62,525 bases of DNA. Origin: Trichodelitschia bisporula. Its lineage: Eukaryota. This document shows positions 32,780 through 37,195 of the stretch, one piece after another. The stretch's first letter is position 1. Every line of letters begins with the position of its first letter. The notes under the pieces are model-generated. The model ran no database searches, was not told where the DNA came from, and worked only from the letters and a program-made list of their open reading frames with translations. The position numbers and the translations under genes are program-made. The stretch lies in assembly GCA_010356995.1 (NCBI GenBank), contig ML996711.1, positions 124,001-186,525 on the forward strand. Reading direction: 5' to 3'.

Positions 32780-33034
32780 TCCATCACGGCAACACTTCAC
32801 AGGCCGACTTGTCCCTCGTCCCTCGTCAAACTGAAAAGCCCTCTCTCACTCTCTCCCTCACTCTGTTCTCGGCAGACTCCCGGCATTAATCCACAGCCGG
32901 CTTCGTATCAACGGCAGATGCTAGACTAGCCTTCCTGACACCTTTATACTCTTCTCCTCTCCTTCCGTCTGCACACCCCGTACCACACGTTCCATCCCAC
33001 CACCCCTCAACCCTCACCCTACCTCCCCTCTACC

Positions 33035-33063
33035 CACACACACGCACACACGCACACACGCAC

Positions 33064-33106
<43 letters not shown>
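33035..33106. repeat. (CA)n compound microsatellite abutting the FOX2 start codon
   Basis: cacacacgcaca...cacaca immediately followed by ATG at 33107. Confidence 0.95.
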
Positions 33107-33108
<2 letters not shown>

Positions 33109-36104
33109 GGTTTCCGACCTGCGCTTCGACGGCCAAACCGTCGTCGTCACCGGCGCCGGCGGCGGCCTCGGCCGCGCATACGCCCTCTTCTTCGGTGCGC
33201 GCGGCGCAAACGTCGTGGTCAACGACCTGGGCGGCAGCTTCAAGGGCGAGGGCGCCTCCTCCAAGGCTGCTGACGTCGTGGTCGAGGAGATCCGCAAGGC
33301 CGGCGGCAAGGCGACGGCCAACTACGACAGCGTCGAGTTCGGCGAGAAGATCATCGAGACGGCGGTGCAGACGTACGGCCGCATCGATGTGCTCATCAAC
33401 AATGCGGGCATTCTCCGCGACGTCAGCTTCAAGAATATGAAGGATGCGGATTGGGATCTTATTATGAAGGTGCATGTCAATGGCGCGTATAAGTGTGCGA
33501 GGGCTGCGTGGCCGCATTTCCGCAAGCAGAAGTACGGCCGTGTCATCAACACTGCGTCGGCGGCTGGGCTGTTTGGCAGCTTTGGGCAGACCAATTACTC
33601 TGGTACGTTCTGCTATTCTCTTCGGCGACGAAGCTAACTCTGTCTCTCAGCGGCCAAGCTGGCACAGGTCGGCTTCACCGAGACCCTTGCCAAGGAGGGC
33701 ATCAAGTACAACATCATCGCCAACGTCATCGCGCCCATTGCCGCCAGCCGCATGACCGAGACCGTGATGCCGCCCGACGTCCTCGAGAACCTGCGGCCGG
33801 ACTGGGTGGTGCCGCTAGTCGCCGTGCTGGTGCACCCCTCCAACAAGACGGAGACGGGCTCCATCTTCGAGGTCGGTGGCGGACACATCGCGAAGTTGCG
33901 GTGGGAGCGCGCCAAGGGCGCCCTGCTCAAGGCCGACGACTCCTTCACCCCTACCTCCATCCTGCAGAAGTGGAGCGATGTCAACGACTTCTCCAAGCCG
34001 GAGTACCCCTCCGGTCCGGCTAACTTCATGGAGCTGCTCGAGGGCTCCATTAAGCTCCCGCGCAATGCGCCCTCGGAGCCGCTGGACTTCAAGGGCAAGG
34101 TCGTGCTCGTCACGGGTGCCGGTGGCGGGTAAGTCTCTTCTCGTATTTTCTGTAATATGTTGCTAACGATGCAGCCTCGGCCGTGCCTACGCCCTCCTCT
34201 TCGCCAAATACGGCGCCAAAGTCGTCGTCAACGACCTCGTCAACCCCGACACCGTAGTCGGCGAGATCCGCGCGGCAGGCGGCGAAGCCGTGCCCAACAA
34301 GGCCAACGTCACCGACGGCGAAGCCGTCGTCAAAGCCGCAATCGACGCCTGGGGCCGCATCGACGTCATCGTCAACAACGCCGGCATCCTGCGCGACAAG
34401 GCGTTCAACAACATGGCCGACGCGCAGTGGGACCAGGTCATCGACGTGCACCTCCGCGGCACGTACAAGGTCACCAAGGCCGCGTGGCCGTACATGCTGA
34501 AGCAGAAGTACGGCCGCATTGTGAATACCACCAGCACGAGCGGCATTTATGGCAACTTCGGACAGGCGAATTATGCGGCTGCTAAGTGTGGCATTTTGGG
34601 CTTCAGTCGCGCGCTTGCGCGTGAGGGCCAAAAGTATAATATCTTTGTGAATACGATTGCGCCGAATGCGGGGACGAATATGACCCGCACTATCATGCCC
34701 GAGGAGATGGTTCAGGCGTTCAAGCCGGATTATGTTGCGCCGCTCGTTGTCCTGCTGTCGAGCGACAAGTGCCCCGACCCCACTGGCGGTCTGTTCGAGG
34801 TGGGCAGCGGGTGGCAGGCGCGCACGCGCTGGCAGCGGACTGGGGGCCATGGTTTCCCCGTCGATGTCCGGCTTACGCCGGAGGCGGTGCTGCAGCAGTG
34901 GGACCGGATCGTGACGTTTGATTCGCGGGCGGATAACCCGAGTGATGGGCAGGACGGGTTGAAGAGCATTTTGTCGAACTTTTCGAATCGGAGTGGGAAG
35001 AAAGGTAAATTGTGATTCTTTCCTTTAGGGTTGTGAGGGGGTGATTTGTACGATTTGGATGCTATAAAAGAGGTTTTTGGTTTTTGGTCTTTGGTAGATG
35101 ATGAATGATAACATTTCCCCCTTGTAGATGCGAAGCCCAAGCCCGCGGGCAAAATCGACCAGACCGTCCTCGACAACATCGCGAAGGCCAAGAGCGCGAA
35201 GGCCGAAGGCACGGAATTCGTCTACACGGAGCGCGATGTGATTCTCTACAGTACATTCCCCACCCCCCCCCCCCCCCCTACCTAACCCATCCCTTCTCTA
35301 ACCCGAGCAACAGACCTCGGCGTCGGCGCCAAACGCACCGACCTCCCCCTCGTGTACGAAAACGACGATAACTTCCAAGTCCTCCCCTCGTTCGGCGTCA
35401 TCCCGCCGTTCAACGCCGTGCCGCCGTTCAGTTTCGCGGATATCTTGCCTAACTTCTCGCCTATGATGCTGCTCCATGGAGAACAGTTCCTTGAGATTCG
35501 CCAACATCCGATTCCCACTGATGCTACCCTTGTGTCGTACCCTAAGTTGCTGGAGGTGGTGGATAAGGGCTCGGCCGGCATTGCGGTCACCGCGAGCACG
35601 ACGGTGGACAAGGCGACAGGCAAGGAGGTTTTCTACAACGAGAGCACGGTGTTCGTGCGTGGCTCCGGCGGCTTCGGCGGCCCGAGGGCTATGCCCGACC
35701 GCGGCGCCGCCACCGCCGCCAACACCCCGCCCAAGCGCGCCCCCGACGCCGTGACCGAGGAAAAAACCACCGAGGAGCAAGCCGCTCTCTACCGCCTCAG
35801 CGGGGACCGGAACCCGCTGCACATCGACCCGTCCTTTGCGGCGGTGGGCGGGTTCAAAGAGCCCATTCTGCACGGGCTGTGTTTCTTCGGTATTGCGGTT
35901 AAGCATGTTGTTAAGAAGTATGGGCAGATCAAGAACGTGAAGGTGCGGTTTGCGGGGCCGGTGATGCCGGGGCAGACGCTGAGGACGGAGATGTGGAAGG
36001 AGGGGGGGAAGGTTGTGTTTCAAGTTAAGGTTGTGGAGACGGGGAAGATGTGTATTGCTGGTGGAGGGGCGGAATTGTTGGGGGGGGCGAAGGGGAAGTT
36101 GTAG
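33107..36104 (+). CDS. FOX2: Peroxisomal multifunctional beta-oxidation enzyme (two SDR dehydrogenase domains plus hydratase 2; 5 exons)
   Basis: TGAGGGLG twice, NNAGILRD twice, YSAAK/YAAAK, hydratase motif [14 protein letters not shown]...PILHGLC, C-terminal AKGKL*. Introns 33603-33650, 34129-34174, 35005-35127, 35251-35313. Confidence 0.97.
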
Positions 36105-36214
36105 GTTCTTCTTTGGGCTTTTTGTGGGGTTGTAGGATAGGTATTTTGGTCACTTTTTGCATACAGATGATTCAGCAAGGTTTGTTCTGAAATTGGATTG
36201 CAGTGCTGGTGTTG

Positions 36215-37195
36215 CAGAACGGTTCCTTCGCGCCCTCCCACTTTCAACCCCGATATCCTCACTTTCCAAACCTGATGACGTCTTCTCCATCGCACCTCCG
36301 AGCGCTCCCAAGCTCTTTCTCTACCACCACCACAGCGTCTCACAAGGAAAATACCCACCCTTCCGCCCCAGGCAGCCTCTGGTTTCAACCACAAGGCATT
36401 TGAGGGATAGGATTATATGAACCTGTAGCCCAAGGGCCAGACGAAAAAGTCGTAAGCGCCCCCCTACCCGGCCGCCGCTTTTGCTGATCCATACGAACTG
36501 TAAACTGGGCGGGGGTACTCACTACGTTTTTCGTCTGATCCTTGACTCTTGCCGACCCTTATTATCCTGTTCCTCAAACGCTTTGTGGGTGTGACCGGAG
36601 GTATCGCCGTGGGTGTTGGGGATGAGGGTGGGCGGATGGTGGGAGTGCGGAGACGGGTGATGATGGCCTAAGTGCTGAGCGGGAAAGTGATGAGCGCCCT
36701 CCCACGGATGGTCTCTGCTTCTTAGTTAGCCAAAATCTTAGTCAAAGCTGGGTACAGGACAACCTTCTGAGGCGTTCATCATCTTTCCGCCCAGCCCTTG
36801 GATGGTTTGGTGGGGAGCGGATCGGGTGGGAGGTTTAGTACGAGGTAGATGCGTGGAGAGTAGTGTATGGTGCTGGCGAGAATGGCTGTGGTAGCAGTAA
36901 GGAAAGAGCTGAGAAGGCTCGGAGGAGCGAGGGAGAAGACGTGAAGCGGGGCGAGAGGGGCGGGTAAGGAGAGGGTAGATATAGGCGAATGAGTTCGGGT
37001 CGGAACCGCGGGGAAGGAGGCGGCTGGGCCCAAGTATGCTGGTGCTAGACTTAACGGCTGGCGTACGTCGTACAGCAGCATGGCTGTGCTATGTGATAGG
37101 CGTATTGCGTAGGACGGTTCCAAGTAGGTCGTACATTGTGCATACTTTGATGTGCAATCGACTACCACTTCAGACCGTAGGGATAAGAGCCATCC
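36215..37195. ncRNA. Candidate large structured non-coding RNA or foldback element (family unassigned)
   Basis: Nested imperfect inverted repeats: 36278-36336/36885-36942, 36376-36464/36511-36601, 36679-36701/36769-36790, and a hairpin at ~37080-37195. No convincing ORF. Confidence 0.5.

Follow-up and report, generated by a model that had tools for sequence, protein, structure and literature searches.

A candidate second peroxisomal C-terminus hidden in intron 3 of the Trichodelitschia bisporula FOX2 gene

Does the FOX2 gene of the fungus Trichodelitschia bisporula specify one peroxisomal protein or two? FOX2 (MFE2), the central enzyme of fungal peroxisomal beta-oxidation, has so far been treated as a single trifunctional polypeptide. 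In the stretch analyzed here (62,525 nucleotides of GenBank assembly GCA_010356995.1, contig ML996711.1, positions 124,001 to 186,525; referred to as the window, with coordinates counted from its first letter) the third intron of this gene, when read through in frame, ends almost at once in the same four residues as the full-length enzyme, which include a candidate peroxisomal targeting signal of type 1 (PTS1). We think that retention of this intron, or formation of an RNA 3' end within it, probably yields a 604-amino-acid, dehydrogenase-only FOX2 that has its own PTS1 and is imported independently. The hidden tag itself is real and, on comparison, conserved in many related fungi.

The FOX2 gene extends from ATG to TAG at 33107-36104 on the + strand, as do all features described below, and has five exons (33107-33602, 33651-34128, 34175-35004, 35128-35250 and 35314-36104) encoding a product of 905 amino acids; the four introns, all GT..AG, are 48, 46, 123 and 63 nt long. 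This model is confirmed by RNA-derived contigs that join across all four introns and by the translation of exon 3, which is 100% identical (98% covered) to P0121, a 905-residue NCBI protein named for T. bisporula. Exon 3 encodes the second dehydrogenase domain and the start of a linker; its last complete codons read ...SNRSGKK, and a single base of a codon split by the intron follows them. Pfam matches on P0121 (PF00106, PF13561, PF08659, PF22622 and PF01575) give the domain order of FOX2, with two N-terminal short-chain dehydrogenase/reductase (SDR) domains followed by a hydratase-2 (MaoC/hot-dog) domain, and P0121 shares 74-86% identity with named FOX2 orthologues. The canonical C-terminus, at 36093-36104, reads GGG AAG TTG TAG, or Gly-Lys-Leu-stop preceded by a further Lys (tail ...GGAKGKL), so that the full-length enzyme ends in a PTS1. 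SKL, AKL or GKL ends are found in 73 of 112 full-length orthologues (26, 24 and 23, respectively), and Lys occupies position -4 in 60 of them. We also note a (CA)n/(CACACG)n microsatellite at 33027-33106, within the transcribed leader, that abuts the start codon and at which contigs break, and a run of approximately 17 C residues at 35263-35279 in intron 4, which is 57% C overall as against the T/G-rich intron 3.

Intron 3 (35005-35127, phase 1) interrupts the linker that separates the dehydrogenase pair from the hydratase domain. Contigs from each of the two sequencing runs considered below show it removed, with the contig joint at 35002/35126 and a cut of +2. Reading exon 3 onward into the intron gives AAG AAA G/GT AAA TTG TGA, where the slash marks the splice boundary, or K-K-G-K-L-stop; the hidden C-terminus thus occupies 35004-35015, with Gly at 35004-06, Lys at 35007-09, Leu at 35010-12 and a TGA stop codon at 35013-15. 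The protein predicted from this read-through, 604 residues in length, has the tail ...SGKKGKL, and its last four residues are those of full-length FOX2, encoded by different codons. The tripeptide fits a PTS1 of the kind that this organism uses, as KGKL is its own FOX2 end and -GKL is native in 23 of the 112 orthologues. A phase-1 G/GTAAR donor would supply Gly-Lys by itself, leaving only the Leu and the stop to be explained, and the chance of these would be approximately (2/16)x(3/64), or less than 1% per intron.

The preliminary description of this locus had reported the K-K-G-K-L-stop and its identity to the native end, the position of the intron between the second dehydrogenase domain and the hydratase, an intron two to three times longer than the others in the gene, and the lack of a canonical branch point, and the sequence and gene model agree with it on each of these points. 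CTAAC is present in introns 1, 2 and 4, whereas no CTRAY of any kind occurs in intron 3, the best candidate there being GATAAC (35107-35112), with the A 15 nt before the acceptor AG, which may serve as the branch point. The donor was also said to be weak, and GTAAAT does deviate at +5, but this is not peculiar to intron 3, because the intron 4 donor (GTACAT) deviates at +5 as well. A motif scan identifies TGTA (35047) and TATAAAA (35063-35069) as candidate cleavage and polyadenylation signals, just upstream of the end of the intronic RNA contig described below.

A further claim, that intron 3 is T/G-rich like the real 3' untranslated region (UTR) and shares motifs with it, holds for base composition, in that the intron and the 3' flank are nearly equal (T 0.41, G 0.28-0.29, C 0.10-0.13). 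It does not hold for motifs or alignment: the best local alignment of the two scores 21, a score equalled by 193 of 1000 dinucleotide shuffles and also reached by 36 of 1944 other segments of the window, and the five 7-mers that they have in common are matched in number by 21% of shuffles. We therefore reject a likeness between intron 3 and the 3' UTR beyond composition, as shuffles do as well.

Evidence that transcripts enter the intron comes from two runs, X1 and X2, of one sample in one study, which contain 84% of the words sampled from the gene. Contigs were placed on 32900-36400; such contigs lose rare forms and cannot show RNA ends, and their depth is given as one figure per contig. Contigs of both runs join exon to exon over all four GT..AG introns, and thus derive from spliced RNA. 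A single 2783-nt contig in X2 covers all of the junctions and ends at 36141, 37 nt beyond the stop codon. The X1 assembly graph splits at the end of exon 3: a contig of exons 1 to 3, with introns 1 and 2 removed, has a depth of 382.8, the spliced branch into exons 4 and 5 has a depth of 186.3, and a second branch enters the intron as a 99-nt contig (34975-35073, depth 153.9, no mismatch) composed of 30 nt of exon 3 and 69 nt of intron 3. This contig passes through the GKL-stop codons, and an alternative transcript that would place the hidden tripeptide at a C-terminus is in this way represented in one run of the two, with 30 exon letters. Introns 1, 2 and 4 are only joined across in X1, which argues against genomic DNA or general pre-mRNA as the source, and unspliced antisense RNA is an unlikely source because it cannot account for the spliced upstream contig.

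The three X1 depths hint at a truncated RNA. Among the contigs listed, from which rare forms are lost, none lies in intron 3 for X2, none covers 35074-35125 for X1, and none spans the whole intron (35005-35127) from exon 3 to exon 4; neither loose ends nor poly(A) letters are reported at intron 3 in the contigs of either run, which cannot show RNA ends. Several other contig boundaries were observed in this region. The X1 contig of exons 4 and 5 ends in a run of eight G residues (36080-36087) ahead of the stop codon, the X2 contig end at 36141 and the end of the X1 intron contig both fall just before a T-rich ...TTTTGGTC motif, and the segment downstream of FOX2 (36185-36400) is covered by separate contigs at a depth of 38-100 that probably belong to a neighboring transcript.

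Conservation of the hidden signal was examined in open reading frames (ORFs) called on contigs of related fungi, some of which extend beyond the end of exon 3 into the orthologous intron, which makes their C-termini read-through tails. A set of 240 homologues, consisting of the best 120 near-length and the best 120 longer matches to the exon-3 translation, was placed by the end of the last BLASTP segment on P0121. Forty-seven proteins end in the linker at residues 598-609, corresponding to intron 3 read-through, and two other positions provide control introns: 50 proteins end in an intron after ...ANYAAA (residues 461-473), and 27 in intron 4 read-through after ...VILYS. The true C-terminus accounts for 110, and six end elsewhere. 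Intron-3 tails are short, with a median length of 3 past the last aligned residue and no more than 10 residues in 46 of 47, compared with medians of 13 (n=50) and 12 (n=27) at the controls. Twelve end in SKL, eight in GKL, 11 in x[KR]V (SKV 7, NKV 2, QKV 1, RKV 1), eight in some other tripeptide with a final Leu (GNL 2, GSL 2, GAL 2, AGL 1, LFL 1) and eight in other tripeptides. Ends resembling the canonical signal ([SAGC][KRH][LMI]) are thus present in 20 of the 47 intron-3 tails, all [SG]KL, compared with 1/50 and 0/27 at the controls, or 1/77 together (Fisher p = 2.6e-9, which is no true probability, as the compared sequences are related). Single linkage of the 47 at 90% identity leaves 33 clusters, of which 14 are canonical-like, nine x[KR]V, five other ..L and five other. 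Moreover, Lys is present at -4 in 21 of 47, as in the hidden tail of the window and in 60 of 112 native FOX2 ends, and the read-through tails thus appear to mimic native ends beyond the tripeptide, up to -4.

How the tails are encoded in other species can be judged from matched pairs of a read-through ORF and its nearest spliced full-length protein, from which splice phases and donors are deduced. Macrophomina phaseolina has ..RSKPAG/DSAGSG in the spliced protein (P0205) and ..RSKPAG/GKSKL-stop in the read-through (P0017, 100% identical); Venturia effusa has ..GGQS/ATPAP (P0127) and ..GGQS/KL-stop (P0039, 96%); Tothia fuscella has ..KSKG/SKPAAS (P0122) and ..KSKG/KL-stop (P0023, 94%); and Rutstroemia sp. 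has ..GGASK/KSEKK (P0140) and ..GDASK/V-stop (P0046, 94%). In these pairs the tails are intron-encoded, with more than one solution (GKL, SKL, GKSKL), and the Macrophomina tail needs five intronic codons. In a group of Leotiomycete- and Sordariomycete-like proteins (P0001, P0026, P0036, P0046, P0053, P0145, P0159, P0218 and P0232) read-through adds Val and a stop after an exon-final Lys, which would imply a phase-0 donor of unusual form, GTN with a stop codon directly after it. We also note that an NCBI gene model of Colletotrichum tofieldiae (P0002, 461 amino acids), named as a peroxisomal hydratase-dehydrogenase-epimerase, ends in ...NKSNKV in the linker and is an annotated model that stops in the linker intron. 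Overall, the cross-species data indicate that the hidden tag is not due to chance. The preliminary description had looked to RNA entering the intron and to a PTS1-like tripeptide plus stop in orthologous introns as the evidence that would bear on its proposal, and both are seen, the former in the 69 intronic nucleotides of the X1 contig, although contigs do not distinguish retention from polyadenylation, and the latter in the SKL and GKL ends of the read-through ORFs.

A protein of the same extent occurs by itself elsewhere in the fungi. A metagenome locus (L005, 128-1258) encodes a second dehydrogenase domain ending in ...ESVKAKL-stop, and its best 120 relatives (P0241-P0360) are Agaricomycete proteins, mostly of approximately 600 residues (range 502-645), that have a normal N-terminus and dehydrogenase domains only. 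They end in [AS][KR]L in 113 of 120 cases, AKL in 103, and their aligned ends coincide with those of the ascomycete read-through tails, 8-11 residues past an N-F-x-N-[KR] motif. Several of them are encoded on contigs of mRNA size (1.9-2.05 kb). A passage in PMC10158824 describes a FOX2 orthologue of Coprinopsis cinerea without the MaoC domain, which is a separate downstream gene. A two-domain dehydrogenase that has its own PTS1 would thus seem to be viable as a peroxisomal enzyme in nature. Complete dehydrogenase-only ORFs of ascomycete-like sequence were also found, with 589-607 amino acids, on contigs of 1840, 1855, 1908, 1982, 2164 and 2172 nt and on two of 3182 and 4075 nt; the contigs that carry full-length ORFs are also of mRNA size, at approximately 2.85-3.1 kb. 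The contig sizes of the short forms may fit short mRNAs of approximately 2 kb, if these contigs are cDNA; over approximately 600 residues none of the short-form proteins exceeds 92.5% identity to any other protein listed, too distant a match to demonstrate that upstream introns were removed.

The explanation we favor starts from what is directly observed, namely the sequence, the splicing of four introns, a transcript form entering intron 3, a conserved short PTS1-like tail and a stand-alone analogue, and proceeds as follows. Intron 3 would carry a selected, in-frame Gly-Lys-Leu-stop at a domain boundary. Most pre-mRNA would be spliced to give the 905-residue trifunctional enzyme ending in -KGKL, and some transcripts would stay unspliced at intron 3, whose length, weak donor and lack of a consensus branch site would make it poor by design, such that its removal competes with the formation of an RNA 3' end within it. 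The unspliced transcripts probably end by cleavage and polyadenylation in the intron, and the short RNA would be translated into the 604-residue protein, which would comprise the two dehydrogenase domains and a -KGKL tail of its own but lack the hydratase. Pex5 would presumably recognize this tail as it does that of the full-length protein, allowing separate entry into peroxisomes. One gene could in this manner provide extra (3R)-hydroxyacyl-CoA dehydrogenase without hydratase, as a separate gene does in Agaricomycetes, and could shift the ratio of the two activities.

A number of observations weigh against this explanation. Gly at -3 falls outside the classical [SAC] PTS1 consensus. A phase-1 [GA]/GTAAG donor would alone yield Gly-Lys or Ser-Lys, so selection must add only a Leu codon and a stop. 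Among the 47 tails, 16 are weakly or not at all PTS1-like, including those of the closest relatives found (P0005 and P0012, 89% identical, ending in -GSL), and the 11 Lys-Val-stop tails of Leotiomycete- and Sordariomycete-like proteins are at best weak signals. Table A1 of PMC3427985 lists SKV among experimentally validated plant PTS1 tripeptides and SKV is a predicted PTS1 of human ISOC1 (PMC3583843), and nothing was found in the literature on SKV as a PTS1 in fungi. Import of yeast Fox2p reportedly proceeds even if its PTS1 is missing (as cited in a passage of PMC9133605), and a PTS1 may thus not be strictly needed. The linker intron is also absent in some lineages: 27 of the 240 ORFs cross the linker unbroken and end in intron 4 read-through, and three metagenome loci (L001, 1463-2419; L002, 790-2592; L004, 2156-3931) have no linker intron, with L002 and L004 continuing unbroken to true C-termini, -ARL and -PKL. 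These loci come from a metagenome scan that confirmed 595 relatives and retained 80 of them, almost all of bacterial grade with 43-55% identity; the close loci among the 80 are L001-L004 and L048 (70-77% identity), of which L003 ends before the linker and L048 is ambiguous there, and no orthologous intron DNA to align was found among these five. A short isoform can therefore be neither universal nor essential, and the linker-intron device would appear to be widespread rather than universal. Finally, the RNA support consists of one contig of 99 nt, which comes from X1 and not from X2, both of them runs of a single sample; neither run is recorded as RNA, and the contig has 30 exon-side letters, one fewer than the 31 set for bridging.

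Several other explanations start from the same observations. Splicing failure or early termination at the weak intron 3 could serve to limit full-length FOX2, with the tag only sending the by-product to the peroxisome, away from cytosolic CoA esters and binding partners, and without a separate catalytic role. The weak donor, missing CTRAY and unusual length of the intron would suit such a role, as would the large share of X1 reads that enters it, with no such branch left in the X2 contigs, and the several lineages with non-PTS1 tails or no intron, as if the short protein were dispensable. However, an Agaricomycete stand-alone protein of the same extent, with its PTS1 kept in 113 of 120, indicates that a dehydrogenase-only enzyme is useful by itself, and the tails match the native FOX2 C-terminus up to -4; we regard this down-tuning role as unlikely. 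It is also possible to attribute the tag to coincidence and splice-site constraint, with [GS]-Lys coming from the donor, Leu or Val and the stop from chance and ancestry, the X1 contig from pre-mRNA, and retained-intron mRNA being degraded without making protein. Chance alone would have to account for an early stop in 46 of 47 tails where control medians are 12-13 residues, for PTS1-like ends in 20/47 as against 1/77, and for the differing solutions GKL, SKL and the intron-encoded GKSKL of Macrophomina, all in proteins only 72-89% identical, a divergence at which a neutral intron should be scrambled; furthermore, the intron-3 contig reaches a depth of 153.9 in X1, a run whose contigs only join across introns 1, 2 and 4. 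We thus consider coincidence quite improbable, notwithstanding that the donor consensus accounts for two of the three tag residues, that the sequences are related and the counts not independent, that there is one contig from one run, and that intron 3 does not resemble the 3' UTR to a significant degree.

The end of the Agaricomycete protein coincides exactly with the site of the intron, and this would be expected if the stop and PTS1 were relics of an ancestral, separate dehydrogenase gene, the intron having arisen at fusion to splice over the old gene end, with no present function. Fused FOX2/MFE-2 is widespread, however, being seen in Mucoromycota (P0170, 1024 amino acids) and also in yeasts and animals, so that the Agaricomycete split is more likely to be derived; an unused remnant would, in addition, not keep a stop and a PTS1 over such divergent lineages. 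A relic is accordingly the explanation to which we give very little credence.

If a dehydrogenase-only isoform is indeed produced, there are consequences for an enzyme on which growth on lipids, virulence in several plant pathogens and engineered fatty-acid pathways depend. Knock-outs, tagging and proteomics would need re-reading, as a tag at the C-terminus leaves out the short form where one at the N-terminus shows both, and hydratase and dehydrogenase flux would need different modelling. Truncated gene models that end in the linker intron, such as the 461-residue C. tofieldiae entry, would merit a second look. The short isoform would also provide an intermediate, concrete enough to be tested, for the division of FOX2 into two genes in mushrooms. 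More tentatively, and with considerable doubt, the intronic PTS1 and stop could be seen as an old, regulated switch for uncoupling domains across much of the Pezizomycotina, with competition between splicing and polyadenylation setting the peroxisomal ratio of (3R)-hydroxyacyl-CoA dehydrogenase to hydratase-2 by carbon source, and with the Agaricomycete two-gene split having arisen by fixing of the short isoform. Were this so, that fixation would document how an alternative isoform can lead to gene fission.

The preliminary description's remark that nothing of this kind has been described for FOX2 agrees with full-text searches of the literature, which turned up neither a short isoform of FOX2 nor a PTS1 encoded by one of its introns; subscription-only papers and book chapters lay outside their scope. 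A term search of a review of dually targeted peroxisomal proteins (PMC9549241) returned no mention of Fox2 or Mfe2 in the text so searched. The proposed isoform does, nonetheless, have counterparts among known systems, each of which it resembles only in part.

Cryptic PTS1 motifs are reportedly created by alternative splicing or read-through, as Freitag and colleagues are said to have described in 2012, with the 2014 work of Stiebler and colleagues named beside it. As in those enzymes, a tripeptide that the standard gene model does not show would become a C-terminus by alternative RNA processing and is conserved among fungi. In contrast, a cytosolic enzyme there becomes dually localized with its domains unchanged, and cryptic PTS1 has so far meant dual localization of this type; FOX2, already peroxisomal, would be cut between domains, with the hidden PTS1 replacing the lost one, such that it keeps its targeting while shedding a domain and changes its domain composition but not its compartment. 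Also close in mechanism is the malate dehydrogenase of Lipomyces starkeyi, for which intron retention, likely coupled with intronic polyadenylation, has been described (PMC7491326). In both cases the retention or splicing of an intron near the 3' end decides the C-terminus and the targeting signal, and intronic polyadenylation is proposed, but there the event switches the compartment and affects only the extreme C-terminus of a single-domain enzyme, whereas FOX2 would drop approximately 300 residues and a whole catalytic domain. A fusion gene is involved in the case of Schizosaccharomyces pombe Aco2 (according to a passage in bioRxiv 10.1101/2019.12.16.879015), where a fused aconitase/ribosomal-protein gene gives rise to a truncated mRNA by internal polyadenylation; as far as that passage goes, the polyadenylation site at the domain junction likewise yields a full-length and an N-terminal-domain-only product, although from other proteins, in other compartments and with no hidden targeting signal. 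The dehydrogenase-only FOX2 orthologues of the Agaricomycetes have the same extent, with two SDR domains and a PTS1 at the same point, and differ in being the annotated product of a separate gene, where the T. bisporula protein would be a minor isoform of a fused one. Mammalian MFE-2 (HSD17B4), in turn, is cleaved inside peroxisomes into dehydrogenase and hydratase-SCP2 parts, and a dehydrogenase unit thus also exists apart from the hydratase in that organelle; the separation there is post-translational and follows import by a single PTS1, whereas that of FOX2 would take place at the level of RNA and with a second PTS1.

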